A DNA stretch of 64,000 nt from Giardia intestinalis. Taxonomy: Eukaryota. Below are positions 5,260-58,044 of this stretch, in pieces. Location: NCBI GenBank assembly GCA_000002435.2, contig CM018793.1. The stretch is one strand, 5' to 3'. The first letter of the stretch is position 1. Each line of letters opens with the position of its first letter. Made by a program: the position numbers and the translations under genes. The notes under the pieces are model-generated. The model had not been told where the DNA came from. It ran no database searches and was given only the letters and a program-made list of their open reading frames with translations.

Positions 5260-5694
5260 TCACGCTACTCCTTTCATCCACATGTAATTTACTAGAATAT
5301 CAGGTTCTCTGCTAAGCGTGGTGACTGCCTGTTCTCGTGCGAGGACCTCAAGAAGAAGATTACGCAGGCGAGTGTACTGGTTTTTCAGTCGTCTGTAGCG
5401 GTCTTCTAGATCAAACGTAGACCTCTTCAGAGGAACAGATGCCGATCTCCCCACCCCCGTATGGTGCACGAGTCTTTGGTGTGCAGTGTAAGGCCGTTCT
5501 CTGAAGGAGGTGGAGCATATCAGACGCAAATTGTTCTCTGCGTCACATCTCCGGGCCTGATCAACATAGGTATCAAGCACAGGTCCAACTACTTGACTAA
5601 CAAGTGCATAAAGTGCACTGGAAGATGTGTGCACAGGAAAAGACAAGGAAGGAAGAAGCCCACAGTCAGACGCATCTCCCTCTGCTCCAATCAT
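5260..5694 (-). CDS. hypothetical small protein (144 aa) with C-terminal coiled coil
   Basis: ATG (minus, 5692-5694) preceded by the canonical Giardia-type initiator TTAAAAAATG; GC3-rich ORF; no homology recognised. Confidence 0.4.
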   Translation of the reverse strand: MIGAEGDASDCGLLPSLSFPVHTSSSALYALVSQVVGPVLDTYVDQARRCDAENNLRLICSTSFRERPYTAHQRLVHHTGVGRSASVPLKRSTFDLEDRYRRLKNQYTRLRNLLLEVLAREQAVTTLSREPDILVNYMWMKGVA

Positions 5695-5746: not shown

Positions 5747-8700
5747 ATGAAGCCGCGGAGTAGTAGATCAGATGTACATCCGAAGAAAGATCTGGTTTAC
5801 CCTAACCCCTTTTGGCCTCCAACGGGGGCCTGTTGTCTACAATCGCCCTTTTCTCTGGATTACCAGGACGCCATGCTTCTGTTGTTTAGGGCCTTGGAGA
5901 GAGCTGTTAATCTCCCCATACTCCGCATGGACGATATGGCGGCCTGCTATACAGTGGCTTTTCAACGTCTTTCACTTTTAAGCTTAGACCATGACAAACT
6001 CAATATCTCATTTACGGACCCCGATAGTGATGCAGATCTACGTATGAAGAAGTCGGCTTCTGATGCCATCTCTTCTGAGGGACCGATAAGCTTTTCCAAC
6101 GCCATTCCTCTCAGACGTTCCACATTACAGGTACTCACAAGTAACCCCTTGGATCTTCTTAACTTGGCCACACAGTTTTATGACTTTCTAAAGTTTCAAA
6201 CAAGACTCCACAGTGAAATTTTGGCACTAATCTATTGTATTCATCGCATCCAAACATGGTCAAACTCTAGCTCAGCACAGGAATCTAATGCATCGTTTCG
6301 CAAACGATCGCATGAGTATTTTAGCTCTTATCTTTCTACATCTTTACAAAACATCAACACTATGATACGGGATTGTCCGCTATTGGTTGATGCCTATCTG
6401 TCCAAAATGGTGTGCATTTCTCTATTACGGTGCTTAGAGCCACAGATTGATACGGGACATAAGGATATGCTAAAGGAATTATTGGGTGTGGCTAACTCAG
6501 GTATTGAAAACGGTAGTGTGCTGCTTGCCCTGTACGATCAGGTGGAATACTACTCTACCAATGAATTCACTGGAGTATACAGTGAGTCTTACCTAATGCA
6601 TCTTACCAATACAATGAAGTCCCTTACACACGGGCTTCTGCTTGGCTGGCACACACTGCGAGCATACAGAGTCAATCTCCTAAGGCAATTGGGAAGGTTT
6701 GATGATGCTTGTACCGAGGCCCGAGAACTCATTAAGCTAACCATTACGACCATGCAAGGCGAGAAGCACCTTTCTGCTTCTCTTTGTACTTGTGTGTCAG
6801 ATACTCTCACTCTTGAACCCTTAGATCCTATCATGTTTGTTGCCCAGCAAACTAATTTTGTCCCCGTGCATTCAAAAGGGTACAATGGATTTGTTCAGCT
6901 CCCACCTCCCTTTCAGTTAGAGTTGGATAATTCCTTATCTTCATTCAGTAGTCAAAATGCTATGGGCAATACAACGACAATCAAGTTTCCCTCACTAAGA
7001 GATATCTACATGTCCTCGCCAATTGGCACTAGTCTGCCACCTGAGCCAGAAAGCTCCAACTCTAATGACCCCGTCAACACCTCAATCAACGTACCCATAA
7101 ACGTAGACCAGTCCGCTTCTTTTACTGATAAGATGAGTAGTCGGCAGAAGACAAACGCCCAGGCTGCAAACACTAAGGCTAAAGATTTAAGCCACAAGGG
7201 CAGATCCCTGTCAGATACTAGTAATATGGGATGCCCAATCCATAGCGCAAGCTCTAAGCATCTAGACTATCGCTTGACTTACTTATTGGCAGTTTTGGAA
7301 GCAGGCTATGATGACGAAGCCTTCGAATACCTCATGTCTGGGGTTTTCCGCAGCAGGCTTTTCTCAAGGCTTAAGGCCAATTTGGATTACGGCACCATTT
7401 ATACCACTCCCAAGAAGTCCGATTATATTAGGTTTGAAGTTCAGAACGACGAAAAGTATCACTACCATACTACTGCCACCTCTGTCAATCCTTCGCCCGT
7501 GCACTACCCAACTTATTATAGGCATTACTCAGAGGGTCTGAATCACAAGTGTGTTGACGACTATTTTGCCAATGGCCCGCAACCTGTATGTAAGGACTGC
7601 ACGAAGAGGACATCTCATGGAGCGCGTCCGCATTTCGTTGTTAGGAATGATGGTGCCTACAATCAGTATACTATGCATAGCTTCCTAGCACGACACAACA
7701 AACTCTTGACCAATATACTGTATCAACGCGCCTACAAGCACATCAACCACATGTTTACAAGCAAGCACGGTACCATTCATAATAGGAAGCCACTCAGCAA
7801 ACTCTCACTTGGTCGCCTGAAGCCGTCGACAAACTTCGTTCACAATCTGAGGATGTCATTCGATCCCAAACTTCTTACTATTATCAATTGTTACTTTTCG
7901 AGTCAGATACGTGGACCTCTGTCTCGCATTCTCTTCTACGGGCCATACTACCAGTTTAGATGCACAAGCGATAAGCCCTATACATCCTTTGAAGACATCC
8001 AGGACGTGATTGATATAATATCATCTTCTAGTCACCACGCTGAACAGCTGCAAGCTCAAGCAATATGGTTTAATTACCATGCGCACAACAACCAAGTAGG
8101 CACCACCACACCTGTGTCTTACTCTATCATTGATTCCCCAGCAAGCATATTCCTATGCACATCAGAGACTAAGGCGACCAACTCACTATTGCGCACAACT
8201 CCACTGACCACTACGGTAACAACCTATACACTATTATTCTTACTTCTGAAGAGGAGGGCAACATGGGCTAATAAGCTTGCGCAGTCGATCTTTGCCGAAA
8301 GGATGCTCGGTTGCAATTGTGCGCGGTCCTCTATGCTTTTCAAGAGGTCCATGAATGTGATGGACCTAGCTATGGCATGGCCAAAGAAGTGTCTGCATCT
8401 TAAGATTATGCCTTCCATGTTGCTCACGGATTTGGGAGTACGGCCTGCAATACCGTCTACCAAGCTGCTACAACTGGCTTTCTCAACAAATCCGTACGTC
8501 GTTGAGTATCTGTTAGCAAAGGCGGTCTTGCCAAGCAAGGTGGCGTTATATGGCCTGACCCTTCTATTCGATGCCAGCGCCTGTGAAGACCCAGATTGCC
8601 TTCTGGTTGCCCAGTATCCCAACGAGGACCTTCAGCTTAGTACATACAGACATGCCGTGCGTGCGTGGCAGGATCGCTACTGCAGGTCATCAGAGGAGAA

Positions 8701-11700
8701 GCAAGGCACATATACTATCGACCCAAAAGCTGCCTCGTGCACAGAAGCCAGGGACAAGGACATGAGGAAAACTGCCTCGCGACTGCGCCTATCAGAACGT
8801 CGTAGGGCTCTTTTCCAGCTAGTGCAGGATCAGCGTAAGCTGGAGGCAGCAATCTACGCTTCAGAATTTGGTGGTTTATGGGGATCAAACGCTCTCTATT
8901 TGCAAATATATGCACTTGCAGAGAAGCTAGCGACGGAAGACGGTATAATGGCCGGTATTCCTTTCTCGTTTTATATTCGCTCTTTGCGGATAATCACTTT
9001 GGGGGCTTGTGATGAGTGTGGGAACAGCTTCCTCAATGGAAAGGGAGTGCAGCTATCCTCGCATGGATATCTGCATATAGCCTCATTAGACTTCTTGCTA
9101 CAGGCATATGTGCAGTATTTGCAATTCGAAGCGGCCAGCACTCTGAGATCTTTAGCAATTCATACGTCTATTACAGCAAAGTCATATCCCGCAGACATTA
9201 TAGATACCACGGATGCCTTGGACACTAAGGATATTAAGGACACAAGCACATCGCTACGAGAAGCATTCTTCAAGAGATGGAGGCTAATATGGAGGGCGAC
9301 GCTACTGCAATTCAAGGGATACCCGCCATACCTATCTCTTCGCTCAGCCCAAGCCATGAAGGAGCTATTTTATAACATGATATTCACTCACAGAAACGTA
9401 TCTACTCCCGATAAGCCTGGCATGCTCAGTTACGTTAACCCTCTGTTGTGTCTTCTAAACACAAATTCACAGTTCCTAGACATCATGACACTTGCATCTA
9501 CAGCCGCGAATGACAAGAATGGCTTACTGTCGCTTCTCCAGAGCTATCTGGTGGCATTCATGTCTGGCAATCAGAAGGAGCTATTTTCTGTCTCAGCTAT
9601 AGAATCTCAGCCAACAAATGTCTATTTCGATATGCCTATCTTTGTCGTATTCTTTTCGTTGACAATTATTTCCATTTTAGAGTTCAAGCCCTCTTTCGCA
9701 CCTGGCAGCCTTCTGTCGGAGTTCACCAGACTTACTACTTTCTCGCCTATTACCGACGCAACCACATCTGCAGGACTACTATTTTATTCTGCAAATGACT
9801 TAAGCCACCACTATATTAGTCCAATGAGCAAGACAAAGAAGCATATATCTTTAACACTATTGAATTGCATGGCTCTCGGTATGCTGTCCAGGAAGGAGGA
9901 CGCCTCTAACGCCCAGATAATAGGCAACAACGCCACGTCATCGAGCGCAGCAACATTCATAGCAAATCGTGATGCATACAAAGCGCTGCAAGGCTCGACT
10001 TGTGATACCCTTGACAAGTGGCTGTCTACTAAAGTCTTAGCCACAAGCAAAATATCATCTCTATCGTTTCAATCAGGATCTAATACCCAGCATGATGTGC
10101 GAGGAAAACGCAAACCTGCGCGTTATATGAAATCATTAAGCTACCAGCACAAGCGATCACCACCGCCGTCGCGTGCACTCGAGCCACATCATTCGCAGAA
10201 TATTGACGATATATTGCTGTCTTCGTTCTATATTGATGATGAGAATAGGCTTTATAGGAGCTTTCTTCGTAACCCCGGTCTTTCCTTGCGTCTTTCTAGG
10301 CTTCAGCGAACTCAGTACTTTGGACTGGCAACATTAAATACTATACTGGAGATGGAGGACATCATTGAGCGCATGTTTGTTACAGTTAACTATAGCGTCT
10401 CAGATCTTATTCTCATATACTTCATGGCACACTCTTTCGATCATACAAGTAGAAAGGCTAATCTGTCCTATATTTACGACTCGGACGCGGTTCTAAACTA
10501 CCGATGCCCAATATCTTCTTTTGGAACGGCCAACATGCCACCTATCTACTATCTTGTGGAGACGGGACAAGATGAAGTCTTTATGCTGCTTATGGAACGA
10601 GTGATATCAGCACTTTCTTATAGAAACCACCTTTCTACCTTAGAGGAGAACTCCACCTCTACCGCCAGCGATTGTCCTGTCCTTCCCGAAGAGTTTTGTG
10701 GATATTCCTTTTCACTGGCCGAAGATATGGTCCTGAAAGTAGACCATGAAGATAGTGACGTGGTGTTAGAGGCTGATTCTAATTCACCACTTCTAACGTA
10801 CTTGGCGGCACGACGAAAGGCCAGACTAGGACCATCCTCTGATCTAGATTTGGATGCGTTTGTTACCCCTAGTACAATCTCCTTCGGTGGAACTCACAAG
10901 ATAGCAATCTATGAGGCTCAAGCAAAGATCTTGAATATCCCCTTATCTAGAGCCGAGATTGATGCCCTCTATACCGCCAAAACGTTATCTAAACAAGAAA
11001 TTGAAACCTGCCTGAACCCCCTGTGGGCAAACATAGTTGGATCCACCAAGCTACTGCGCAGTAGTATTGATAGCTTGGTCCACTGCTGCTACAAAGGAGA
11101 GACGCTGCTTCATGCTGCATCTAAGAGGGATCACCTACATATTATTGAGCTAATTCTATTAATTTTTCCAGTAGATTGTTATGATCTATTACGCTCTTTT
11201 TATGCAGCTCTTCTGAATCACTCGTCGGGCGCTCTTCGTCTCTTTCTTCCCAGTCCACTTCATCCATCTCTTGAAGGTGTTAGAGATATAGCAGCAGATA
11301 TAAAAGAGGGCATTTCCACAATCACCACAGAGACTCCGGAGTGCAAGTACTTACTGAAGCACTCCATAGCCGCTGCCTCTGCTCTCTCTGATATGTCTAA
11401 TATTCTACTGAACTCGTTTTCGTACGATGTCAATCCGCTCTTGAAACTTGGCTCAGGCGAGTCTCCTTTCTCGCCTTTAGCCAACCATGAACAGCTAGCC
11501 GATAAGCTTCAAGAGTTCCAGCAGCTCGTCTCATCCAGTCAGTATTACTCCTTTCTTGCATGGGCACACCTTGTTAGGACATTGCGGCCATTCTGCTCTG
11601 GCACTACAGGCGGTGTCTCCTGCTTACACTGTCATCATGCTAAGTCGAGCCCCTGCAAGAAGAGCAATCTCCTTAAATATCTGTCGTTCGCGAAGACTCA

Positions 11701-14251
11701 CTCAGCTACGAGTGAAAAGACTGAGAAAAGGCACCAGCTATCTACCATGCAAAAATTGCTTGCCCAGCAATGCTACTTTTCCGGTCACTCTCTCCATGGA
11801 TGCATAGATTTACTGCTAAGCGCTAACATAGATATACGGATATGTGCCATGCAAAATATGGAACTATATAATATGCTCAGCACATTCAACAGAGCTTTTG
11901 TTATGGAACAACTGCCAATTAAAACGTCCGAGCAGCGGACAGAAATCTCTTACCCAGACCCCATAGTCTTGTTGAAATATCTTTCATATGTTTACCAAGT
12001 ATTTGGTACAAGAGGATTGCCGAGTAGCAATAATAATCTGAATAGTATAGTCTTTGATCGCTTCTGCACTCCTATGTCAACGCCCTTGATTATGGCAGCC
12101 CAGTATGGAAGTCCTGTTTGTCATATACTTTGCGCCATCATAAACTCTCTGACAAAGTCTACCACTGCTGAAAGGGTGCTCAGCAATCCAAGTACACTGA
12201 GCGCATACGTCAATCATAGAGATGCATATGGACTCACCGCCCTTCATCATGCAACTATTCTGTTCATTCGAGCATTTGTTTCCATCATCAAGCATAGCCT
12301 TTCACCTATCATCTCACTAGGTCTTAGCCTTACAGCCTCTTTCCCAGCCATACATAAACCAGAAACGGTAATCTTTGATCATGAATTTGCTTGTAGTATC
12401 TTGGCCCTGTCACGGGCAAATGTTAAGGCCCTAATGCTGGCTGGAGCTGACCCTGGAATACCCGATGCCACAGGAGTGCGCTGCTGTGATAGACTCATTG
12501 CTATGTTGCTAGAGATGAATATGATACTGTTTCCACCAGAGTATGTAGTTGAGCGCTTTCATAAGGATCAGCCGACTGACATACTTATGCATCTAATACT
12601 GTGGTCAGAGAAGCACCACAAGCCTTCGCGTAGTGATGCAACTTTGAACCCTGACTCTTCTTTGACCGTTCGCATACCAATCTTAATCGAGGCTAAACAC
12701 GTTAATTGGAGAGAGGAATTAGTGAAACTACAGCTCAGACAATTGCAAAGATCTGGACACCTTACAAAGGATGTGTTGTCTACTGATCGCACATCTCCAC
12801 CACTAGCCCTTGATCTACGTGTCCAGATTAGCGTTGAGGTGCACCCGAAAATCTCTTCTGTATCCTCTGCCATGCAGGTCATAATACAATCCAATTGTAC
12901 CCGTGTGATCTCCGAACTGTCTATCGTGCTATCAATATTCCTCGGGCTTCCCGAATATCAAGATCGCAACCAGGCCTTTTCTAATGATATCATTACCACA
13001 TCCACTACCACCTTCATTCCTACCCCTGCGGAGATTGTTCCTCTCCCTTTTTGTAGTGTTAGTGCAGAGGGCATTCAGCACTATCTCGAACTCTGGTCCT
13101 CAGTGCCGGTCTTGGAGATAACGAAGCAGCCACCCCTCTCTTCACCTATGCCACCTATGCCAATGCAAGAACTACTTCTTTGGGCATACAGTCTGTACTC
13201 TGTCTATGGTCTCCGGGACTGTAGGTTCATTGACGAGTTTCATTCTAAATGGGCCACGACAGGTAACGCTTTCATTCCGTGGGATACTCAGGTGTACAGT
13301 TCCGACGCATCTGCAGAGGAAACCGTTACTTGTTCATCAGCTACAATACCTGCAGTTGACCAGCTGCCGCCTCTACTGCACTCTCTCTCACTAGAGTCTG
13401 CTATCGGCAGACTAGCACTTGGGGACAGTAGGGTGGTATACACTCGGAAATATAATTTAAAATTTTACAATAATCAATCTAATTGTCAATATTTTTCTGT
13501 ACATAGATTTAGAAATCAGGTGTGGAGGCGGATATTGGGGAACTTAAGAGCTAAGCCTTCAATATGTAATGAAAGCGTACACATCCAACACATAGACTTA
13601 GACAAGACAGGGTCTGCCATAGTCGATACCATAACGATGTCCGTGTCGCACACACTACTTCAGAGCTCACTACTGGACTTTCCGAACCAGATGCTATCCA
13701 CTGCAGACATCTTCACTCTTCTCAAGGAGTCCTTAGTTATATGCTTCCATGAAGAGGAAGCGTGTATAGAGTCTGAAGGCCGTGACTCACTGTGCGCCAC
13801 TGTTACCTACAGAGATGTACTCGGTCTTTCTAGCTCAGCTGACGACTCCGTTCTTCTGGATCTTCGAACGATATTTCGTCGTGCTAGGGTGCTCTCTATT
13901 TTGGCTGACAACATCTGCCCGCGATCGACTCTTCTATTCTGTTCGCCCGATGATCTGTGCTTCCCATCTGCGTGGATGCTGTCTCAGTGTTTCGCGGGGT
14001 CGAAGGTGTTCCTTGAGTCACTTTACTCAAGCAACTGCAACAACGATCTAGCGGAGGGCATAGACGAACTGTACGCTCCAAAGATTCCTCTGTTGGACGC
14101 TATGATTGATAGAACACTCCAGTCTACCAAAATATGTTCCACCCTCTTTGACGGCAGAGTCACAGAGGAAGCGGAGCCCGTAGACAAAAGAACTGTACTG
14201 TTCACACCGAATCGGCTAGGCTTCGCTAGGCTGCAAAATAAACACATTTAG
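5747..14251 (+). CDS. giant hypothetical protein (about 2834 aa), largely alpha-helical, a few ankyrin-like GxTALHxA segments
   Basis: Uninterrupted 8.5 kb ORF; ORF-track start at 5744 is TTG, first ATG at 5747; no catalytic motif recognised. Confidence 0.6.
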   Translation: MKPRSSRSDVHPKKDLVYPNPFWPPTGACCLQSPFSLDYQDAMLLLFRALERAVNLPILRMDDMAACYTVAFQRLSLLSLDHDKLNISFTDPDSDADLRMKKSASDAISSEGPISFSNAIPLRRSTLQVLTSNPLDLLNLATQFYDFLKFQTRLHSEILALIYCIHRIQTWSNSSSAQESNASFRKRSHEYFSSYLSTSLQNINTMIRDCPLLVDAYLSKMVCISLLRCLEPQIDTGHKDMLKELLGVANSGIENGSVLLALYDQVEYYSTNEFTGVYSESYLMHLTNTMKSLTHGLLLGWHTLRAYRVNLLRQLGRFDDACTEARELIKLTITTMQGEKHLSASLCTCVSDTLTLEPLDPIMFVAQQTNFVPVHSKGYNGFVQLPPPFQLELDNSLSSFSSQNAMGNTTTIKFPSLRDIYMSSPIGTSLPPEPESSNSNDPVNTSINVPINVDQSASFTDKMSSRQKTNAQAANTKAKDLSHKGRSLSDTSNMGCPIHSASSKHLDYRLTYLLAVLEAGYDDEAFEYLMSGVFRSRLFSRLKANLDYGTIYTTPKKSDYIRFEVQNDEKYHYHTTATSVNPSPVHYPTYYRHYSEGLNHKCVDDYFANGPQPVCKDCTKRTSHGARPHFVVRNDGAYNQYTMHSFLARHNKLLTNILYQRAYKHINHMFTSKHGTIHNRKPLSKLSLGRLKPSTNFVHNLRMSFDPKLLTIINCYFSSQIRGPLSRILFYGPYYQFRCTSDKPYTSFEDIQDVIDIISSSSHHAEQLQAQAIWFNYHAHNNQVGTTTPVSYSIIDSPASIFLCTSETKATNSLLRTTPLTTTVTTYTLLFLLLKRRATWANKLAQSIFAERMLGCNCARSSMLFKRSMNVMDLAMAWPKKCLHLKIMPSMLLTDLGVRPAIPSTKLLQLAFSTNPYVVEYLLAKAVLPSKVALYGLTLLFDASACEDPDCLLVAQYPNEDLQLSTYRHAVRAWQDRYCRSSEEKQGTYTIDPKAASCTEARDKDMRKTASRLRLSERRRALFQLVQDQRKLEAAIYASEFGGLWGSNALYLQIYALAEKLATEDGIMAGIPFSFYIRSLRIITLGACDECGNSFLNGKGVQLSSHGYLHIASLDFLLQAYVQYLQFEAASTLRSLAIHTSITAKSYPADIIDTTDALDTKDIKDTSTSLREAFFKRWRLIWRATLLQFKGYPPYLSLRSAQAMKELFYNMIFTHRNVSTPDKPGMLSYVNPLLCLLNTNSQFLDIMTLASTAANDKNGLLSLLQSYLVAFMSGNQKELFSVSAIESQPTNVYFDMPIFVVFFSLTIISILEFKPSFAPGSLLSEFTRLTTFSPITDATTSAGLLFYSANDLSHHYISPMSKTKKHISLTLLNCMALGMLSRKEDASNAQIIGNNATSSSAATFIANRDAYKALQGSTCDTLDKWLSTKVLATSKISSLSFQSGSNTQHDVRGKRKPARYMKSLSYQHKRSPPPSRALEPHHSQNIDDILLSSFYIDDENRLYRSFLRNPGLSLRLSRLQRTQYFGLATLNTILEMEDIIERMFVTVNYSVSDLILIYFMAHSFDHTSRKANLSYIYDSDAVLNYRCPISSFGTANMPPIYYLVETGQDEVFMLLMERVISALSYRNHLSTLEENSTSTASDCPVLPEEFCGYSFSLAEDMVLKVDHEDSDVVLEADSNSPLLTYLAARRKARLGPSSDLDLDAFVTPSTISFGGTHKIAIYEAQAKILNIPLSRAEIDALYTAKTLSKQEIETCLNPLWANIVGSTKLLRSSIDSLVHCCYKGETLLHAASKRDHLHIIELILLIFPVDCYDLLRSFYAALLNHSSGALRLFLPSPLHPSLEGVRDIAADIKEGISTITTETPECKYLLKHSIAAASALSDMSNILLNSFSYDVNPLLKLGSGESPFSPLANHEQLADKLQEFQQLVSSSQYYSFLAWAHLVRTLRPFCSGTTGGVSCLHCHHAKSSPCKKSNLLKYLSFAKTHSATSEKTEKRHQLSTMQKLLAQQCYFSGHSLHGCIDLLLSANIDIRICAMQNMELYNMLSTFNRAFVMEQLPIKTSEQRTEISYPDPIVLLKYLSYVYQVFGTRGLPSSNNNLNSIVFDRFCTPMSTPLIMAAQYGSPVCHILCAIINSLTKSTTAERVLSNPSTLSAYVNHRDAYGLTALHHATILFIRAFVSIIKHSLSPIISLGLSLTASFPAIHKPETVIFDHEFACSILALSRANVKALMLAGADPGIPDATGVRCCDRLIAMLLEMNMILFPPEYVVERFHKDQPTDILMHLILWSEKHHKPSRSDATLNPDSSLTVRIPILIEAKHVNWREELVKLQLRQLQRSGHLTKDVLSTDRTSPPLALDLRVQISVEVHPKISSVSSAMQVIIQSNCTRVISELSIVLSIFLGLPEYQDRNQAFSNDIITTSTTTFIPTPAEIVPLPFCSVSAEGIQHYLELWSSVPVLEITKQPPLSSPMPPMPMQELLLWAYSLYSVYGLRDCRFIDEFHSKWATTGNAFIPWDTQVYSSDASAEETVTCSSATIPAVDQLPPLLHSLSLESAIGRLALGDSRVVYTRKYNLKFYNNQSNCQYFSVHRFRNQVWRRILGNLRAKPSICNESVHIQHIDLDKTGSAIVDTITMSVSHTLLQSSLLDFPNQMLSTADIFTLLKESLVICFHEEEACIESEGRDSLCATVTYRDVLGLSSSADDSVLLDLRTIFRRARVLSILADNICPRSTLLFCSPDDLCFPSAWMLSQCFAGSKVFLESLYSSNCNNDLAEGIDELYAPKIPLLDAMIDRTLQSTKICSTLFDGRVTEEAEPVDKRTVLFTPNRLGFARLQNKHI

Positions 14252-21418: not shown

Positions 21419-21463
21419 AGAGTGGACCTGGCACTGCGGTTTGCAACTGTCTGCATAGCTCGT

Positions 21464-22033
21464 TTACTCGTCCTCGAGCCAGTTGCTGTCCCGGATGAAG
21501 GTCAACATCTCGAGCACAAGGGAGTCCGTACTGTGGATGCTTGCGTAGAGGAGGCGGTCCATGAGGGATGGAGGCTTCTCCACAAGAAGCACCTGAGACC
21601 GCCTGCCACGCTCGACCATCCTTTGGGTATACCCCTGCTTGAAGCGGTTTGTCTCTGGAGGACTCGTGTATGCCCCAGATTCTCGGAGGCGTCGTCGTGC
21701 ATCCTCGCGCTCCTGCTTGTTACGCGCCGTAGGATAGTTTCTTTTGCGCTCACTAGTCCATGTTTCACCTCCCTCTCGCTGCTGTGGGGTCAGGCGCCGC
21801 ACGGTCGCCGGTATGAGCTCGCTAGACATTTAATCCACTAATTTTGCTGCGTGCTCAAGCCTCCTGTTATACAGTTCCATCAGGGTGTCGTACTCCGAGT
21901 CTGCAAAAGGGTCGGTGTCTGGCACTGCTTGCGGGGGCTGCATCTGTGCAGGCGCAGGTGGGGCAGGTATATATTTCTGGCATCCATCGACCATGTAACA
22001 CAGCGGCTCGAAGGAGGCAGTCGGCCGATCCAT
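21464..22033 (-). CDS. hypothetical small basic protein gene interrupted by one in-frame TAA (ORFs 21833-22033, 67 aa, and 21464-21829, 121 aa, same frame)
   Basis: Upstream ORF begins at ATG 22031-22033 behind an AT-rich tract; TAA at 21830-21832 is followed directly by ATG 21827-21829 in the same frame; both parts GC3-rich and protein-like; combined 189 codons. Confidence 0.45.
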
Positions 22034-22045
22034 AGAAAATTAAAG
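22034..22045. promoter_or_regulatory. 12-bp AT-rich bidirectional promoter/initiator (agaaaattaaag) between divergent ATGs
   Basis: Minus ATG ends at 22033, plus ATG begins at 22046; only AT-rich 12-mer between them. Confidence 0.5.
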
Positions 22046-22429
22046 ATGCACGTTGAGGTTAGGGTCGGACAACCCGTGCCCGCCAGCCTCCAGAGTGCTT
22101 TCGATATTCAGATACGGCCCGCCCCAAACCTGGGCCTGGCAGTAGAGCAGGCGGCCGAGATCCAAAGCTTCCTGGAGTCTGCTCTCCCGCCGTGCGTGGC
22201 CATGGAAGAGCTGCGAGGATTCCAGACGGCGATTACCGTCTACATTATGCTCGTAGACGACGCCTCTACGGATGCGTTCGCAAACCTCCTGGGAAGCGTG
22301 CTGCGCGCACTCGAGCGGGCAGGAGTCCCCGTCCTGGGCATCCCCGTCGCGCAGCCGCTCTGGGGGTCCTTCACAGCCCTGACGCTCCCCGGCACAGACC
22401 TAGTCGTCAGTGTCCAGCGCGGGAAGTGA
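22046..22429 (+). CDS. hypothetical protein (127 aa)
   Basis: ATG behind aaaattaaagATG; protein-like composition (MHVEVRVGQPVPASLQSAFDIQIRPAPNLG...); ORF-track N-terminal extension from 21851 would overlap the divergent gene and is rejected. Confidence 0.5.
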   Translation: MHVEVRVGQPVPASLQSAFDIQIRPAPNLGLAVEQAAEIQSFLESALPPCVAMEELRGFQTAITVYIMLVDDASTDAFANLLGSVLRALERAGVPVLGIPVAQPLWGSFTALTLPGTDLVVSVQRGK

Positions 22430-22457
22430 ACTGCAGGGCTTGTTTACTGGGCGGGGC

Positions 22458-22637
22458 TTAGAGCTCGAGGGCTCCCTCCGGGCAGGCGGACACGCAGGCG
22501 CCGCACTCGACGCAGGCGTCGATGTTCGGGGTCAGGACCACCTTGGCGCCTTGGGGAAGCTCGAAGACAGAGACGGGGCACGCGTCGACGCAGGCGCCGG
22601 CGGCAGAGCACTTGGAGGCAGTGAGCTTGATGGGCAT
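22458..22637 (-). CDS. bacterial-type ferredoxin, 7Fe-like ([3Fe-4S] CxxAxxCxxxCP + [4Fe-4S] CxxCxxCxxxCP), 59 aa
   Basis: MPIKLTASKCSAAGACVDACP...CVECGACVSACPEGALEL; ATG behind AAAATG; AGTAAAC poly(A) motif (22442-22448, minus) 10 nt after the stop. Confidence 0.85.
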   Translation of the reverse strand: MPIKLTASKCSAAGACVDACPVSVFELPQGAKVVLTPNIDACVECGACVSACPEGALEL

Positions 22638-22805
22638 TTTAAAATCGCCATAAAAGTAAAAACTCCTTTTTGTGGCACCACAAATTTTAAGCACCCGGAC
22701 AGTTTGGCGATTTCGCAATATTGAGTGTATCGTGGGCCGGCTTTCATCATAGCCCATTAGGTACATAAAAACAGAGTTTTTACTTTTTGAACACGCTTTA
22801 TACTC

Positions 22806-31047: not shown

Positions 31048-34000
31048 ATGTCCGGCTCAGATAACAGGAGGCTACAGAGCGAGGTGACTAAACTGGTGCG
31101 GATTCTTCAGGAGCTTGGTTATCCAGCAAGATCCCTGGGCCCCCTTCAAGACAATCTTTTGCCCCCGAACAGGTTCGAATTCACCTCACTTGCCTTGTTG
31201 ACCCTAATCCGATGGCTAGAAACAGATTCCCTTCCAATCTACACTTCGTTTCTTTGCGAGTATGTCGTAGACCCGAGAACGATTCCGGATCAGACGGTTA
31301 TTTACTTAATGTACAACGCTCTCATCGATATCCTTCACTATGAGCCGAAGCTGTCTGCAGAGGCCTTTCTAGATAAGATAGGCGGTACCATAACTGGTGA
31401 GCTGCGAGATCTCCATTACTATCGCGTACGAACGGTGAGAATCTTTGCTAAACTCTTACATGATCTTCAGCTAAGATGGATTAGGCACTCCTCAGAACGT
31501 ATGCGCGGAACAGACGGTTTTATCGTTTTGCTCCCTCCGTCCTTGAAGCCGCAAATGCCTTATGTAGCTCAACGCTGGACCTCTCACCCGGCGGTCATCA
31601 TGCATCAGCCAGAGAATGCAGCATATCGAGGCATTGTTTCGGAGACTCCGGCAGATATGCCTAGAATTCATCGCGCCCCATCTTTTCCTGGCCTACAACC
31701 TCACTATTATCCTGATCCAGCACATAATGCATCACATCAAATTAACCATCTCGTTGATATTACTCGCAATGCCGTAGCTGCTCACTCCCATCCCTCGTCT
31801 TTTGACGTGGCTGTTGGCATGGACAAGCTCCCCGGTGACATTCAAAGACGCCTCCACAGTCAGTTTTCTAGTCAGTCAAGGAAGCATAAGAGACACCATT
31901 CAAGCAGATCTTCATCACGGAAGAACGAGTTGGCTAGGAGAGAAGCCAGAACTCGCTCTAGCCAGGCAGGCCGTCATCGTAGACGTGCATCGTCAACCTC
32001 TTCTACCTCGGTCTATTCGTACAGCAGTAGCTATTCCTCAACCAAATACTACGATGATTCAGACGCATATTCTACCTACTCTGATTCAGTAGTGGAAGAA
32101 GCAGATGAAGAAAGGCGCACAACATCAAGAAAGAGATCTCACTCACAGGGGAGGATGTCAACAAGGACGAACCATAAAGTTAGCAGCTCACAACGAAGGT
32201 CAAAGAGGGAGTCTACCAGTCACTCAAAAAGGTCTCGTGGCCAATCTGCCCGACACCGACGCAGGCCTTCCTCCGCCACAAGATCTAGGTCAGCAAAGTC
32301 AAAACCTGCAGACAAGGTGCACAGTGATTCCTTTATTGCAAAGGACGCGCACCAAAGAAGCATTTATGAGCCCAAAGAAAAGCCTCTTTCTCCCAGAAAT
32401 CTTAATGCATCGAATCAAGCTTCAGTCAATGTTCCGTCTGGACACCAAACCCTTAATACTGGCATGGATTCAAAAAGTCAAGAGGAATATATGTCAGATC
32501 GTGAGCTACTTCTTCAATTGGGCAGAGCCACAGCCAAAAAGTATGTGACTTCCGGCGGAGAATTCTACGACACGACTAGGCAAACACCCACTTCCTTGCA
32601 GCAAATGTCTGAGTTTCCTGCCTCAAACTCTGACCCTACTCAGTTGCATGTAGATCTATCGCGTTACTCTGTTAAAGACAAGAGTATTCTTGCAAACACA
32701 GCAATTGATAATGCAGATCTTCAGATCAATCATCTCAATGCCGTTCCGCTGCCACCGCGCGCTGGGCCCTTCTCTGCCGGTCCGCCAACTCTTCCTGCAG
32801 TCCCGGTAACCAGCTCCTATCCACCGAGCTGCCATCCGTCCATTAATCCGGTATATAATGAACCTTCCTATAACATACAAGCAGCGTGTCCTGCCACACC
32901 TCTTTACATTAATCCTCAAAGAGAAACTGGAGCAGAATCTGTTGGAACGAGCGCTGCTAATATGCCCACGTATAATTTCCCGAAGGATGGAGTATACGTC
33001 CCTGGATATCCTTATATTGTTCCGACTGAATTTGGTGATGCGCCCTCAAGAGAGCCCTACAGTGATGCAGAAGCTTCTGCTCTGCCAGCGTCGTTTGTTA
33101 TGGCACAGAGACATGTCGAAAGCACCCCAATCATGAGTAACGGACAAGACCTGAGGCCACTCCTAGATAAGCACCCAGACCCTATGATGGAGTACATGAT
33201 AGAAGCAGAGATCAGACGTGCAGAATCAGACCCGCGGCAATTAGAGGAAATAAACAATCTAGCACAAGAAGACAATTATCGGAAGAGCGTTACATCAAGA
33301 ACAACCACTCTTCCATTGCCCTCCACGTCGACATCAGTAGCTCTGAACAGCGACCATCCCACCTCAGTTCCTGCTACTTCTCTGCCAACACCATCCTATT
33401 CTGGCTCTGCGCACATGGGAAGGATAGATTCTCGCACCAATGAGCTTCTGCCAGCCCCATCAGTAACCAACAGCAACACTGTCGTTAGCGCTCGTGACGG
33501 AGCGTCCAGCCTGCCTCCGCCAACGACCACAAACTCAGGTATCTCCACAGCTCCCCTGAGATATCCTACGAGTACTACTGTTGAGACGCTCGATGATTAC
33601 ACTGGGCTCGTGAAGCATGCCCTCCAGAACACCCCATCCACTGCACCGTCACATCCAACCACCTCTGGATCCCACACTTCTCAGAGTTTTTATGACAACT
33701 TGACTAGCTATTCTGGGAAAGAGCTATCTAGTAGCTTTAGGGAGCGTATAAACAAACTAACCAGGGAATCCAGTTCAACGCCAGAGACGGCGTCCGTTTC
33801 AGCTAGAGAAGCGATTCCAACAAGAACAGTGGCCTCTTTGAATAACAGAATACTGGTAACCAATGGCCTCCCTGGAGTATCCTCCACTCCCACAGCGACA
33901 GCAGCAGTTCCATTAATGGTCAACAAATATGGACAGGTCCAGGTCAATCCAGATATAGTCTTTCCGGAGATACCGGCTTCAGAGCGCCACAAACCAGAGT

Positions 34001-35931
34001 ACAGAGCAGCTATTGAAGCAGAGGCCCTGCGACAAACACATGCTATCGTCCCAGATACAGCCAAGTATCACTCGGTAGGCGATCTTACTGAAGACGATCT
34101 TAAAAAGAGTGGCATTGCGTACATCAGGGAGTCGTCTACCACTTCTGGCTCTTCCAGTATCCCAGAGTGTGTGATTGGACACTTGGTAGGAGGAGGAAGT
34201 CGCTCTACCCTGTCGATGACCAAACCCACAGTTAACATAGAAGCTCCAGAGGTGGCTCTACAAGAGACGTTGACTGCTGGCGACAAATCATTCCACAAGA
34301 CCAGTAGACAAGATTATCCAGATCCTTACTCTGTGCCAAAACCGTTCAATAATCTACCCACTGCTAATGTCTCTGCTGTGCCGTCCACATCTCGCTCGTT
34401 GTACACACATAGTGTCAGCATTCCAGAGTCCATCCCGTTAGGTGGAAATATTAAGACTGCCATCGAAGCGATAACTGATCGAGTTGAACACGTACAGTCA
34501 GAGCTTACAGCGGCAACGGCGGCAACTGCAGCAATAATTGGATCACACAATGGTGTTGGTGGTAGCAGTAGTAGTAGTGCAAGCGTTGCCTCAATCCGAC
34601 AGCCTTATGACTTGTCCAAGACTAGCACTGGTGCACGGGGATCCAGACGTGATGATACACCAGTGACGAGTGGTCCGAGGGGAGATAGCGTGCTGAGTAG
34701 TATGAACACAATGTCCACAAAAAGCGTTCGCTTTGCTGGCCAGGACACAACGGACTCCCACGATTTATCAGAGCACTTGTCATCTGTCCGTGACGACTTT
34801 TTAAATTTAGAGCAGGTATCTAAGTCGCCATCTGACAGGGTATCTACATCTATGCACCAAATGACGAAAGAATCTAGTTCAACTACCCTGCCACTGCCCT
34901 CCACAAATACGACAAATCCAGAGAAGACACTAACATCCAACCTGCCTGTGGCGTCAAGCACTTCCCAAAACCACAGCTATGACATAGATAGTAAGCAGGC
35001 CCTCATAGAATCTGCTCAATCTCTTGGCAGAACAGCCAGTGCTCTGCAGAGACTCCAGGCCAGTGGGGTCTCCCACTCCACGCCAGCAACCTCATCTCCA
35101 AAGGAGTATATTGGACGCCGGTTCGACTCTACGCCCGAGACTACTGGTGGCTCTCTTCCTCCTCCCGAAAGCGCGTCATCAGTGTCCAACCCTATTGGTA
35201 CTGTGATGTCTGGAACCGGAAGCGTATTGATTCCCCCGTCTAGCACAACTAACACGGGTGCGACAGGATCAAGTGCTCGTCCAAATCTGTATCTTCCTAG
35301 CCTTGGTCAGTCTACTGAGATGATTTCCTCTGTGGAAAATCCCAATCTTGTACTGAATAATAGTACACTAGTTCTATCCGATGGCATAGCAAATTCCCTA
35401 GGACGACGACTTAATGCCGAGATGCACACAGAACCGAAGCATCATATTCCCCAGTATCCTCCTATGGGCCCTCCAGCCTCCAATGTTCCTCCAGCCATTG
35501 ATAAAGCAGCAGATGAACTAGGTGCCAAGCCAGGAGCCACGTCACAAACTAGTATCATATCCGGGTCTGCTGGGGGCTCCGGAACATCTAAGAGCTCTGG
35601 TGGATCAGGTAGCTCAACAAACACTATAAAACACTTATCTCACGGATTAAGCGATGATGCAAATGGCTTGGGAACCCTATCAGTTAATGCGCATCGAACA
35701 AGTACAGAAAGCCCCCCTAGTAATGGATTAGAAGCCAGTAGGATACCTTTGAGCGGAAGCCGCCTCCGAGAGCTTAAGGCGCAGGGAGAAAAGCTTATCA
35801 GGGCTGCAAATGAAATCGAGACAGCGTTTGTTCCTCCCTATCTTAATCAGGGGTCGTCTACAGGAACCACAGTGATTGGGCCAAGCAGCCTTGGAAGCAC
35901 GAGTGCAAATAATACGACATACTCCAGTTAG
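31048..35931 (+). CDS. very large S/T/P-rich protein (1627 aa) with ordered N-terminal domain and an RS/basic dipeptide-rich segment
   Basis: About 200 aa non-repetitive N-terminus, then RKHKRHHSSRSSSRK...RHRRRASSTSS...SKRSRGQSARHRRRPSSATRSRS, then about 1200 aa Ser/Thr/Pro low complexity. Confidence 0.65.
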   Translation: MSGSDNRRLQSEVTKLVRILQELGYPARSLGPLQDNLLPPNRFEFTSLALLTLIRWLETDSLPIYTSFLCEYVVDPRTIPDQTVIYLMYNALIDILHYEPKLSAEAFLDKIGGTITGELRDLHYYRVRTVRIFAKLLHDLQLRWIRHSSERMRGTDGFIVLLPPSLKPQMPYVAQRWTSHPAVIMHQPENAAYRGIVSETPADMPRIHRAPSFPGLQPHYYPDPAHNASHQINHLVDITRNAVAAHSHPSSFDVAVGMDKLPGDIQRRLHSQFSSQSRKHKRHHSSRSSSRKNELARREARTRSSQAGRHRRRASSTSSTSVYSYSSSYSSTKYYDDSDAYSTYSDSVVEEADEERRTTSRKRSHSQGRMSTRTNHKVSSSQRRSKRESTSHSKRSRGQSARHRRRPSSATRSRSAKSKPADKVHSDSFIAKDAHQRSIYEPKEKPLSPRNLNASNQASVNVPSGHQTLNTGMDSKSQEEYMSDRELLLQLGRATAKKYVTSGGEFYDTTRQTPTSLQQMSEFPASNSDPTQLHVDLSRYSVKDKSILANTAIDNADLQINHLNAVPLPPRAGPFSAGPPTLPAVPVTSSYPPSCHPSINPVYNEPSYNIQAACPATPLYINPQRETGAESVGTSAANMPTYNFPKDGVYVPGYPYIVPTEFGDAPSREPYSDAEASALPASFVMAQRHVESTPIMSNGQDLRPLLDKHPDPMMEYMIEAEIRRAESDPRQLEEINNLAQEDNYRKSVTSRTTTLPLPSTSTSVALNSDHPTSVPATSLPTPSYSGSAHMGRIDSRTNELLPAPSVTNSNTVVSARDGASSLPPPTTTNSGISTAPLRYPTSTTVETLDDYTGLVKHALQNTPSTAPSHPTTSGSHTSQSFYDNLTSYSGKELSSSFRERINKLTRESSSTPETASVSAREAIPTRTVASLNNRILVTNGLPGVSSTPTATAAVPLMVNKYGQVQVNPDIVFPEIPASERHKPEYRAAIEAEALRQTHAIVPDTAKYHSVGDLTEDDLKKSGIAYIRESSTTSGSSSIPECVIGHLVGGGSRSTLSMTKPTVNIEAPEVALQETLTAGDKSFHKTSRQDYPDPYSVPKPFNNLPTANVSAVPSTSRSLYTHSVSIPESIPLGGNIKTAIEAITDRVEHVQSELTAATAATAAIIGSHNGVGGSSSSSASVASIRQPYDLSKTSTGARGSRRDDTPVTSGPRGDSVLSSMNTMSTKSVRFAGQDTTDSHDLSEHLSSVRDDFLNLEQVSKSPSDRVSTSMHQMTKESSSTTLPLPSTNTTNPEKTLTSNLPVASSTSQNHSYDIDSKQALIESAQSLGRTASALQRLQASGVSHSTPATSSPKEYIGRRFDSTPETTGGSLPPPESASSVSNPIGTVMSGTGSVLIPPSSTTNTGATGSSARPNLYLPSLGQSTEMISSVENPNLVLNNSTLVLSDGIANSLGRRLNAEMHTEPKHHIPQYPPMGPPASNVPPAIDKAADELGAKPGATSQTSIISGSAGGSGTSKSSGGSGSSTNTIKHLSHGLSDDANGLGTLSVNAHRTSTESPPSNGLEASRIPLSGSRLRELKAQGEKLIRAANEIETAFVPPYLNQGSSTGTTVIGPSSLGSTSANNTTYSS

Positions 35932-57411: not shown

Positions 57412-58044
57412 GACCTATCCTGTCTTATTCACTGTCTACACCTCAAGATAGCCACTTATCATTCTAGCAGCTAGAGTTCTCAACTCTCCAGTGTTATGTC
57501 CTTGTTGGATCGCCCATAACTATCTGGTGCGTTGTACCGTAGTTTTCGATGCACGTATGCAATGCAGTATCCGATTGTATCTCTATTCGGCAAACGTGAG
57601 ATGTACTTGGATTTACCCTTGAGGCAGAGTATTCATCTTATTAGACGCAACAGTGCTGCCGACCAAGCCACTGCTAGGCAGAGCACACGGCCTGTATCTG
57701 CTCATCTCGTGCTCTAGCCAGCCACCCTGCGTGAGCATCTGGAGACATGCCTGGACATATGTGTGGTATTCTGCGGTGTGTACGGTCCCGTGTCCACGCA
57801 GTAGGCCAGCCAGAGAGCGTGTGCAGGCACGCCATGTGGCACCACGTCCTTTGTGGAGCGCTGGAGGAATACACAGGTGAGGGTCTACCATCAAGATGCG
57901 GACACGTTGCTTCCTGACATGGAAGGTCAATGAGGCTATCCAGATGGCCCAGCTATGGTAGAAGGCTAGCAGATGTGATCGTATTGGCCATCAGCACTGT
58001 CACTAACACCAACATGCATGACTAATGGACCTAGCAGGGCCGCA

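Follow-up and report, generated by a model that had tools for sequence, protein, structure and literature searches.

The stretch analysed here, a 64-kb window of the Giardia duodenalis WB genome, carries on its minus strand two short open reading frames, ORF1 (GL50803_5514) and ORF2 (GL50803_5515), which are separated by no spacer at all: the TAA of ORF1 is followed directly by the ATG of ORF2 in the same frame (Table 1). An earlier note on this DNA had pointed out the ORF pair and its TAAATG junction, and both were confirmed on the minus strand. The 12-bp divergent promoter described there is likewise correct, as is the assignment to Giardia. GL50803_5513 begins at 22046 on the plus strand, divergent from ORF1, and the AT-rich spacer between its start and the ORF1 ATG resembles the initiator variant ATTTTAATTTT, which is listed for Giardia by Tolba et al. 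(PMC3792122). In the WB reference annotation, ORF1 (XP_001706009.1 / KAE8305563.1) and ORF2 (XP_001706010.1 / KAE8305562.1) are already present as separate hypothetical genes. In public assemblies, the exact 67-aa ORF1 product was called in 90 blocks and the exact 121-aa ORF2 product was found on 186 contigs. Given this recurrence and the WB annotation, the TAA of ORF1 is neither an error nor a rare allele.

Table 1. Positions of the two genes, their junction and the associated signals and motifs in the 64-kb window.
Feature	Position	Strand	Remark
Divergent initiator spacer, 12 bp, AT-rich	22034..22045	.	Minus-strand reading CTTTAATTTTCT
ORF1, GL50803_5514	22033..21830	-	67 aa plus TAA; stop at 21832-21830
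AT-rich block GCAAAATTAGT in the ORF1 tail	21837..21847	-	Candidate weak internal initiator, unproven
Stop-start junction TAAATG	21832-21827	-	ORF1 TAA directly followed by ORF2 ATG, same frame
ORF2, GL50803_5515	21829..21464	-	121 aa plus TAA; ATG at 21829-21827
PEP-type motif, ORF2 residues 23-50, TWTSERKRNYPTARNKQ...	21680..21763	-	Matches Pfam PF10453 NUFIP1
C-terminal conserved module, ORF2 residues 76-120, ...PPSLMDRLLYASIHSTDSLVLEMLTFIRDSNWL	21470..21604	-	Matches the NUFIP1-family C-terminal module by hhalign
Poly(A) signal AGTAAA, dual-use, overlapping the ORF2 stop	21463..21468	-	Only AGTRAA in the ORF1-ORF2 unit

When ORFs of at least 60 aa were considered mechanically, four other stop-start junctions appeared in the window. 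Three of them involve ORFs that lie in alternative frames within large genes, and one is located upstream of the ferredoxin start, so that all four are spurious and the junction of ORF1 and ORF2 is the only one between two conserved genes within the 64 kb. On a crude ORF map, the tandem gene spacers elsewhere in the window measure 41-678 nt, and the 0 nt between ORF1 and ORF2 is an outlier by comparison.

We then compared the junction among Giardia lineages. The TAAATG form (offset 0) is found in assemblages A and E (P15) and in lineage L004-6, a TGATG form (offset -1) in several independent genomes of assemblage B, and an ATGA form (offset -4) in the deeper lineage L002, in which codon 2 of ORF2 now encodes Ser by AGC instead of TCN and thereby supplies the A of the overlapping TGA. 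In each lineage examined within the G. duodenalis complex, the ORF1 stop therefore either directly adjoins or overlaps the ORF2 start, whereas the remaining spacers of the locus differ in length. In assemblage B and L002 the two ORFs lie in different frames, and a fusion product of ORF1 and ORF2 thus cannot be conserved. A single slippage deletion in TAAATG could give the TGATG form and would by construction preserve both signals; this form therefore proves that the ORFs are independent, not that coupling is selected.

The dN/dS values range from 0.09 to 0.25 for ORF1, with one saturated pair at 0.61, and from 0.04 to 0.19 for ORF2, in a comparison in which synonymous sites are near saturation (dS mostly above 1). 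On these values both ORFs are evidently coding and under purifying selection. The chance of about 0.003 given previously for 122 stop-free codons is arithmetically right, (61/64)^122 = 0.003, and the protein-like character claimed for both halves is backed more strongly by dN/dS than by that estimate. No excess synonymous constraint was detected near the junction (4/15 vs 24/99, p = 0.53), so that the GCAAAATTAGT block does not qualify as a specially conserved element. Taken together, the comparisons indicate that ORF1 and ORF2 are two separate conserved genes, that is, separate cistrons without a spacer, and the retention of three junction forms across lineages suggests one mRNA translated by stop and restart.

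The protein encoded by ORF2 carries a PEP-type motif matching PF10453, the PEP / NUFIP1 domain with the Snu13/15.5K-binding motif W..ER+.N[FY]PT. The match of WB ORF2 (E 6e-4, 20.0 bits) falls just below the gathering score of 23.3, and the profile is matched by 7/7 ORF2 orthologues with a best E of 3.7e-7. Further exhaustive HMMER profile searches with ORF2 led to NUFIP1-domain proteins of Hexamita, Trichomonas, Tritrichomonas and Histomonas, and ORF2 alone covers the full length of the small stand-alone NUFIP1 proteins of metamonads. When residues 76-120 were aligned against the C-terminal module in the NUFIP1-family alignment, a helical module with the pattern ..SLL.KLL..[ED]I....S..LQC.R[YF][IF]V..NF, hhalign gave a probability of 97.7% and an E of 1.4e-12. 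Residues 317-352 of Rsa1 are the Hit1-binding site (PMC4176330), and we infer that the C-terminal module of ORF2 corresponds to this Hit1/ZNHIT3-binding site of Rsa1/NUFIP1. No sequence match was obtained to the solved Rsa1/NUFIP1 fragments in PDB, whether ORF2 or canonical NUFIP1 was the query. A GFP fusion of GL50803_5515 was recorded as "nuclei, very rare and faint" in trophozoites and as "interior of cyst" (PMC5450421 and supplement). From the presence of both the PEP motif and the C-terminal module, ORF2 is a complete minimal NUFIP1/Rsa1 homologue, previously unrecognised (the assemblage B copy carries a spurious "SMC" annotation), and is predicted to act as a minimal box C/D snoRNP assembly factor.

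For ORF1 the attempt at family assignment gave no Pfam match. An AF2 model (mean pLDDT 73, pTM 0.29) places strands at residues 11-15 and 18-22 and a helix at 46-66, so that the modelled protein would consist of a beta-hairpin, a Pro-rich linker and a C-terminal helix. The possibility that ORF1 is a detached piece of NUFIP1, such as the acidic/aromatic tail of outgroup NUFIP1s, was rejected, with an hhalign probability of about 0. ORF1 is evidently a real, selected, orphan small protein, and may be a functional partner of ORF2. In L007, a distant, Giardia-like outgroup, a probable ORF1 homologue stands alone about 0.8 kb from the NUFIP1 gene, each with its own AT/T-rich start, and the NUFIP1 genes of L007 and of a further outgroup, L010, have no ORF1-like N-terminus. 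The C-terminal tail of ORF1 is longer in G. duodenalis (..EHAAKLVD) than in L007 (..SGDK).

These data bear directly on the proposal, made in the earlier note, that the locus is one 189-aa gene, either broken by a nonsense change that is a sequencing error or one allele of a polyploid genome, or read through at a programmed stop codon. Such a gene would agree with the arrangement in WB, P15 and L004, in which both ORFs share a frame with a single TAA between them. A nonsense change is nevertheless refuted by the presence of the stop in every assembly and lineage examined, and the differing frames in assemblage B and L002 refute both it and readthrough. In addition, ORF2 alone already has the full length of a small metamonad NUFIP1, ORF1 is unlike any NUFIP1 part, the outgroup NUFIP1 genes start without it, and no uninterrupted orthologue or homologue spanning ORF1 and ORF2 was found in collections of 5.8 billion and 1.84 billion proteins. 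We therefore give a single gene almost no credence. Two independent genes with separate promoters, the arrangement that the note had named as speaking against its proposals, are probably what L007 has; this disproves the single gene and has no bearing on coupling in G. duodenalis.

To describe the transcript, the signals flanking the two ORFs were inspected. AGTRAA, the poly(A) signal (AGTRAA/AGURAA) defined in PMC9014877, occurs once per ORF1-ORF2 unit, always at the ORF2 stop, in 5/5 lineages; between the ORF1 start and the ORF2 stop no other copy was found in any lineage, nor was a conserved near-match that could serve ORF1 as an alternative hexamer. An ATTAAA straddles the junction in 3 lineages only. 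The signal at the ORF2 stop is used in vivo, since the entries for ORF2 in Table S1 of PMC3610916 give mapped 3'UTRs of 11, 9, 10 and 8 nt in WB, AS175, P15 and GS, respectively. About 40% of Giardia genes have no AGURAA (PMC9014877), and the absence of the hexamer after ORF1 is thus not decisive. The neighbouring ferredoxin, a stand-alone small gene, has ATTTTAAAATG at its start and an AGTAAA of its own.

Published RNA levels (PMC5450421 supplements) showed that GL50803_5514 rises from 589 FPKM in vitro to 2253 in vivo (3.83x) and GL50803_5515 from 257 to 1036 (4.04x), and that the convergent RPL37a changes 0.10x in the same comparison. The ratio of 5514 to 5515 stays constant in these data, at 2.17 in vivo and 2.29 in vitro, which shows that the two mRNAs are co-regulated. 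The ORF1 RNA is not the scarcer of the two, and nothing therefore points to an ORF2-only transcript as the main species. The pair has the appearance of a single transcription unit, and both ORFs may lie on the same mRNA molecule.

Next, the region upstream of ORF2 was assessed for an initiator of its own. In Giardia, transcription starts promiscuously at AT-rich tracts, and TSS-seq has revealed about 8000 transcription regions with AT-rich initiators almost everywhere (PMC3792122). The 20 nt before the ORF2 ATG are 70% A+T (gene starts, 64%; internal ATGs, 51%) and rank in the top 16% of internal ATGs; the GCAAAATTAGT block lies 8-18 nt upstream of the ATG. In a weight-matrix scan the site upstream of ORF1 outscored that upstream of ORF2 in 5/5 lineages. 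The best initiator-like 11-mers upstream of ORF2 scored from -6.9 to -2.0, which is matched by 19-43% of internal ATGs, and the lowest score (-6.9) is that of assemblage B, where the ATG-proximal TTAAATG has been lost. Giardia leaders measure 0-14 nt with an optimum for translation of 1-5 nt, and recruitment declines once they exceed about 9 nt (PMC3388326, summarising Li and Wang 2004).

The best-supported mechanism is, in our estimate with a probability of about 45%, a dicistronic mRNA with termination-reinitiation; a promoter nested in ORF1 is a close rival, and sequence alone cannot separate the two. The 12-bp AT-rich initiator preceding ORF1 would mark the start of transcription, and the transcript would end at the single AGTAAA overlapping the ORF2 stop codon. 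The near-leaderless 5' end would load ribosomes for translation of the 67-codon ORF1, and after its TAA a fraction of them would restart at the abutting AUG, so that ORF2 would be translated by reinitiation. Offsets of 0, -1 and -4 are classic coupling configurations and count in favour of this mechanism. Moreover, every lineage has 2-6 further AUGs inside ORF1, and given these and the short leaders of Giardia, an AUG 204 nt from the cap could be reached only by restart after termination. The GFP fusion relied for its expression on the 200-250 nt upstream, a stretch that includes the whole of ORF1, and was scored "very rare and faint" (PMC5450421), despite a GL50803_5515 mRNA level above the median; this would fit inefficient reinitiation. 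What counts against a simple dicistron is that the FPKM ratio of ORF1 to ORF2 is 2.2 and not 1, which needs a length-normalisation artefact or some ORF1-only transcripts, and also that the A+T content before the ORF2 ATG equals that of real gene starts in an organism whose initiation is promiscuous at AT-rich tracts. For efficient eukaryotic reinitiation, 67 codons is long. We found no conserved RNA structure upstream of the junction (RNAalifold -3.9 kcal/mol, covariation term -0.12) and no stable structure at it by single-sequence folding (z-score 0.31). Given these results and the lack of excess synonymous constraint, we see no indication of a dedicated restart element of the kind that caliciviruses and victoriviruses have. 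The termination-reinitiation bicistron, also offered in the earlier note, thus stands as the reading that best fits the anatomy of the locus, with the nested promoter nearly as likely.

Under that close rival, two transcription units would overlap: a weak AT-rich ORF2 initiator (GCAAAATTAG...GATTAAATG) within the last ORF1 codons would give a near-leaderless monocistronic mRNA, and ORF1 transcripts running through ORF2 would carry it as an untranslated 3'UTR. The zero spacer would then be the end-point of compaction after two once-separate genes had been joined. We consider this arrangement as a whole nearly as probable as the dicistron. The A+T content like that of gene starts, the resemblance of GATTAAATG to initiator variants such as AAATTAAAATG, the near-ubiquity of AT-rich initiators in the TSS-seq regions (PMC3792122) and the optimality of a 1-5 nt leader all argue for a nested promoter, as does L007, where the probable ORF1 homologue and the NUFIP1 gene are separate and have their own starts, which implies that ORF2 was formerly served by a promoter of its own; the ORF1 tail, longer in G. 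duodenalis, may consist of onetime promoter DNA taken into the reading frame. Nested start sites are also a known solution in other compact eukaryotic genomes, namely those of microsporidia and nucleomorphs. Against it, the putative initiator scores within the coding background in all lineages, and the 3' end of ORF1 shows no excess synonymous conservation. The ORF2 RNA stands at about 0.45x that of ORF1, where read-through plus a nested promoter predicts at least as much ORF2 as ORF1; the roughly 4-fold induction at a constant ratio would need two equally co-regulated promoters; and ORF1 has neither an AGTRAA nor any conserved alternative. Other routes to ORF2 on a dicistronic mRNA seem improbable. 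Leaky scanning would have to pass the extra ORF1 AUGs, and long leaders are poorly translated in Giardia. Internal ribosome entry has a precedent in the IRES that Giardiavirus uses in Giardia cells (PMC3066225), yet no stable or conserved RNA structure surrounds the junction. A small intron removing the stop was suggested by a CTGACCCCACAG motif resembling a Giardia intron 3' end 37 nt into ORF2 (21782-21793). This candidate was rejected, because the motif is explained by the conserved LTPQ coding sequence and there is no conserved GTATGT 5' splice site (assemblage B has a single GTATGT, which does not share the frame of the CAG); nor could an intron account for three different junction frames.

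Termination-reinitiation has well-known viral counterparts, in which the stop overlaps or abuts the downstream AUG, such as calicivirus VP1/VP2, influenza B M1/BM2 (UAAUG) and the victorivirus/hypovirus AUGA/UAAUG junctions (reviewed and exemplified in PMC3542737 and PMC6631646). ORF1 and ORF2 show the same AUGA, UGAUG and UAAAUG forms, and by this likeness the downstream product would be expected to fall below the upstream one. The viral systems, however, need an upstream cis element, which may be a TURBS complementary to 18S rRNA, a hairpin or a pseudoknot, whereas the Giardia junction showed neither a conserved structure nor additional nucleotide constraint; they also concern viral genes, and the present pair is cellular, with near-leaderless mRNAs and a restart that is proposed. 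The junction geometry is identical to that of prokaryotic translational coupling (ATGA/TAATG), in which overlap forms interconvert in evolution and which typically links the subunits of one complex. It differs in having no Shine-Dalgarno-type element, a capped and polyadenylated eukaryotic mRNA, and two cistrons only. In microsporidia and nucleomorphs, vanishing spacers let the upstream mRNA run through the downstream gene, with signals embedded in coding sequence, and translation of the downstream gene presumably uses a separate, nested transcript; in contrast to these compact genomes, the stop-start geometry is specifically retained here and the RNA levels are tightly proportional. Dicistronic loci of green algae and fungi also place two conserved ORFs on one polyadenylated transcript. 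They mostly rely on leaky scanning past a weak upstream AUG and have spacers between the ORFs, whereas in Giardia scanning is implausible and the ORFs abut.

A functional likeness is that to NUFIP1/Rsa1 and its small partner ZNHIT3/Hit1, since ORF2 shares the PEP motif and the C-terminal module of the family. With 121 aa it is short beside a 477-aa NUFIP1 family member (P0025) and has none of the N-terminal regions of typical NUFIP1s. Rsa1, with 381 aa, is also far longer. The level of Rsa1/NUFIP1 is dependent on a small partner that binds in stoichiometric amounts to its C-terminal region (PMC4176330), and this gives a reason why ORF2 might be coupled to a small co-expressed protein. ORF1, however, lacks a zf-HIT domain and does not detectably resemble Hit1/ZNHIT3, and any interaction with ORF2 is purely hypothetical. 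The fullest version of the restart mechanism is one that we put forward tentatively and hold to be somewhat doubtful: a NUFIP1/Rsa1 factor would be made solely by element-free restart of non-scanning ribosomes, its stoichiometry would be fixed with that of ORF1 as a Hit1/ZNHIT3 analogue, and the ancestor of the G. duodenalis complex would have joined two once-separate neighbours end to end.

Whatever the mechanism, GL50803_5515 can be re-annotated from "hypothetical protein" or "SMC" to a predicted minimal NUFIP1/Rsa1-type box C/D snoRNP assembly factor, and GL50803_5514 is evidently a real, selected small protein and its candidate partner. If the nested promoter is right, the locus would be an extreme but ordinary case of genome compaction in Giardia. 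If ORF2 is truly made by restart, Giardia would provide a minimal natural system in which to study element-free reinitiation by eukaryotic ribosomes, working here without an eIF4G-type scanning machinery, and would bear on the rise of operon-like coupling in eukaryotes under genome compaction.

The earlier note had described a 67-codon ORF (ORF1, GL50803_5514) whose stop codon is followed directly by the ATG of a 121-codon ORF (ORF2, GL50803_5515), and this stop-start arrangement was confirmed exactly by reading the minus strand and listing its ORFs. While the junction has no spacer, tandem spacers elsewhere in the window measure 41-678 nt on a crude map. An exact-sequence look-up identified the window as Giardia duodenalis WB (assemblage A) and showed that both reference annotations list GL50803_5513, 5514 and 5515 separately, each as a "hypothetical protein"; annotation of the pair as two genes is already known. 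What is new is that the junction is conserved and interconverting, that the pair has the signal layout of a single unit and is co-regulated, and that ORF2 has a NUFIP1/Rsa1 identity.

Features of the ORF1/ORF2 locus and related sites in the window
Feature	Coordinates	Strand	Description
ORF1 (GL50803_5514)	22033..21830	-	67 aa; TAA at 21832-21830
ORF2 (GL50803_5515)	21829..21464	-	121 aa; same frame as ORF1, zero spacer after ORF1 TAA
CTGACCCCACAG	21782-21793	-	37 nt into ORF2
AT-rich 12-bp spacer	22034-22045		between ORF1 and divergent GL50803_5513
GL50803_5513	22046-22429	+	127 aa; divergent from ORF1
Ferredoxin gene	22443-22647	-	2x[4Fe-4S], 59 aa; ATG 22637-22635; AGTAAA 22448-22443, 10 nt past stop
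Mechanical junctions	8571-8765/8762, 32858-33136/33133, 59093-59416/59413	+	alternative-frame ORFs inside large genes 5747-14251, 31048-35931, 58018-59610
Mechanical junction	23137-22757/22757	-	upstream of true ferredoxin start
Convergent ORF	53100-54038	+	312 aa
Convergent ORF	54035-56812	-	925 aa
CTAG	54035-54038		palindromic, common to both convergent ORFs

To compare the junction, orthologous DNA of other lineages was set against WB. TAAATG is found in assemblage E (P15; GLP15_3066/3065) and in lineage L004-L006. Assemblage B (GS GL50581_559/560, BAH15c1 and other assemblies) has GAC-TGATG, with one base common to stop and start and the frames differing, and the deeper lineage L002, where ORF2 identity is only 64%, has AAA-ATGA-GC, a 4-nt overlap with the ORFs out of frame. 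Since the frames differ in assemblage B and L002, a conserved fusion protein, from either an undamaged allele or readthrough, is impossible; neither a search of 5.8 billion proteins nor an exhaustive profile search against 1.84 billion representatives turned up a homologue spanning both ORFs. The exact ORF1 product was seen in 90 blocks from public assemblies and that of ORF2 on 186 contigs, which rules out both a sequencing error and a rare allele as the source of the TAA. These results refute two proposals of the earlier note, a nonsense or allelic change in a 189-aa gene and stop-codon readthrough. For its third, a termination-reinitiation bicistron, the geometry stood and the reading as a whole is plausible only. 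Both ORFs evolve as coding sequence, with dN/dS in ORF1 at 0.09-0.25, apart from one saturated pair at 0.61, and in ORF2 at 0.04-0.19, in comparisons where dS is mostly >1. In L002 (779-784), the second ORF2 codon is Ser AGC, while other lineages use Ser TCN; this family switch supplies the A of the ORF1 TGA stop and may be a compensatory change keeping the overlap.

The Giardia poly(A) signal AGURAA usually lies 13-15 nt before the cleavage site, is depleted in ORFs, sometimes overlaps the stop codon and is used by only about 60% of genes (PMC9014877). Exactly one AGTRAA is present in the ORF1-ORF2 unit, overlapping the ORF2 stop in 5/5 lineages, and ORF1 has neither an AGTRAA nor a conserved alternative hexamer. 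A strand-specific RNA-seq table (PMC3610916 Table S1) gives 5515 3'UTRs of 11, 9, 10 and 8 nt in WB, AS175, P15 and GS. In published Cuffdiff tables (PMC5450421), the FPKM of 5514 was 2253 in vivo and 589 in vitro (fold change 3.83) and that of 5515 was 1036 and 257 (4.04), compared with 748 and 7385 (0.10) for the convergent neighbour RPL37a. The resulting 5514:5515 ratio (2.17 in vivo, 2.29 in vitro) is about 2.2:1 and not 1:1, which may come from length normalisation distorting the value of a 204-nt feature or from some RNAs that carry ORF1 only.

Giardia mRNA leaders are 0-14 nt long, 1 nt being optimal, and recruitment drops beyond ~9 nt, according to the summary of Li and Wang (2004) in PMC3388326. 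Every lineage has 2-6 further AUGs within ORF1, which makes leaky scanning implausible for ORF2 and leaves either restart after termination or a separate short mRNA. We rank termination-reinitiation first, with a probability of roughly 0.45: one dicistronic mRNA would carry both ORFs, and ribosomes terminating at the ORF1 stop would restart at the abutting ORF2 ATG. The junction geometry is the same as in viral termination-reinitiation (calicivirus, influenza B, victorivirus) and bacterial translational coupling, but a cis element of the kind that defines the viral systems was looked for here, as conserved RNA structure and as extra synonymous constraint, and not found, and we therefore do not describe the locus as a demonstrated member of the stop-restart class; it possibly works like a stop-restart dicistron.

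Ranked a close second, and likewise tentative, is a nested initiator giving ORF2 its own short mRNA, which would resemble the overlapping transcription of compact eukaryotic genomes. A+T makes up 70% of the 20 nt preceding the ORF2 ATG (gene starts average 64% and internal ATGs 51%, with 16% of the internal ATGs at 65% or more), and transcription initiation at AT-rich 11-mers is widespread in Giardia (PMC3792122). However, a weight matrix built from published initiator variants scored the site upstream of ORF2 at -5.5, -5.5, -6.9, -2.0 and -2.1, which 19-43% of internal ATGs equal, and the ORF1 site outscores it in each lineage; near-junction synonymous sites lack extra conservation (4/15 vs 24/99, p = 0.53), and ORF2 RNA levels do not exceed those of ORF1 RNA (PMC5450421 FPKM). 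Weighing this together with the absence of a conserved RNA structure as a virus-like restart signal at the junction, we place termination-reinitiation above the nested promoter, and both could contribute.

The PF10453 domain (NUFIP1/PEP motif) was matched by 7/7 ORF2 orthologues (best E 3.7e-7), the WB protein itself scoring 20 bits, slightly below the 23.3 cut-off. An exhaustive search linked ORF2 to small stand-alone NUFIP1-domain proteins (135-220 aa) of Hexamita, Trichomonas, Tritrichomonas and Histomonas, as well as to longer NUFIP1 proteins, and residues 76-120 resemble the C-terminal module of the family (hhalign probability 97.7%, E 1.4e-12). By these two sequence criteria, the PF10453 and C-terminal module matches, ORF2 is a minimal yet complete NUFIP1/Rsa1-type protein. 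In yeast, Rsa1's functional C-terminal portion comprises the Snu13-binding PEP site and a Hit1-binding site, and how much Rsa1/NUFIP1 is present depends on its small partner Hit1/ZNHIT3 (PMC4176330). For a published 5515-GFP fusion, the score given was "nuclei, very rare and faint" (PMC5450421 supplement), and we found no paper naming a Giardia NUFIP1. The assemblage B orthologues ESU44529.1 and KWX14017.1 are spuriously named 'Chromosome segregation protein SMC'. Within ORF2, CTGACCCCACAG looks like the motif in which Giardia introns combine branch point and 3' splice site, and is conserved in assemblages A, E and B (CTAACTCCTCAG in L004). It encodes a conserved LTPQ and has no conserved GTATGT upstream, so its likeness to an intron 3' end is probably coincidence.

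Four more mechanical stop-start junctions between ORFs of at least 60 aa (ATGA or 1-nt overlaps) occur in the window and were rejected as real gene pairs from their positions. The ferredoxin gene is a textbook stand-alone small Giardia gene with the top-ranked initiator variant ATTTTAAAATG at its start; gene callers lengthen it to 160-173 aa by adding an in-frame ORF upstream, which probably does not code for protein. The values 9 and 239 for GL50803_5513 in a UTR-length table (PMC9014877), read as proximal and distal 3'UTR lengths, imply a long form that would cover the whole convergent ferredoxin gene (22458-22637, minus strand), 28 nt away, in antisense. Extreme 3'-end compaction is also seen where the stops of two convergent ORFs overlap by 4 nt, CTAG providing a TAG per strand.

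ORF1 matches no Pfam family and shows no resemblance to NUFIP1 proteins. AlphaFold2 models (six orthologues) predict a beta-hairpin (11-22) and a helix (46-66), both confident and joined by a Pro-rich linker, without a globular core (mean pLDDT 73, pTM 0.29). In the more distant, Giardia-like outgroup contig L007 (SRR31929897), the NUFIP1 orthologue (3001-3513, plus strand) keeps the convergent RPL37a downstream and has no abutting ORF upstream. On the same strand, some 0.8 kb upstream and beyond an opposite-strand B9-C2 gene, lies a called 53-aa gene (2047-2208; MNVIERPLRYRGANGIIRTIPPCSPREDDVQEESGSDFNHLLDAYNKKLSGDK) in which the motifs of ORF1 follow one another as they do there (E.PL.Y..G..IPP ... 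SDF..L...YNKKL). Of 296 ORFs, it matches the ORF1 profile best (E 0.011; tblastn against a tiny database gives E 0.003), and given these weak statistics we regard its homology to ORF1 as probable only. No AGTRAA was found near the stop of this gene or of L007 NUFIP1, a sign that the lineage may use another poly(A) signal. Neither ORF1 nor the junction was seen in L010, a second, GC-rich outgroup. If the L007 homology holds, ORF1 is an old independent gene and near neighbour of NUFIP1 that came to lie directly against it in the ancestor shared by the G. duodenalis complex and L002; the new view of the pair is thus of probably two once-separate neighbouring genes.
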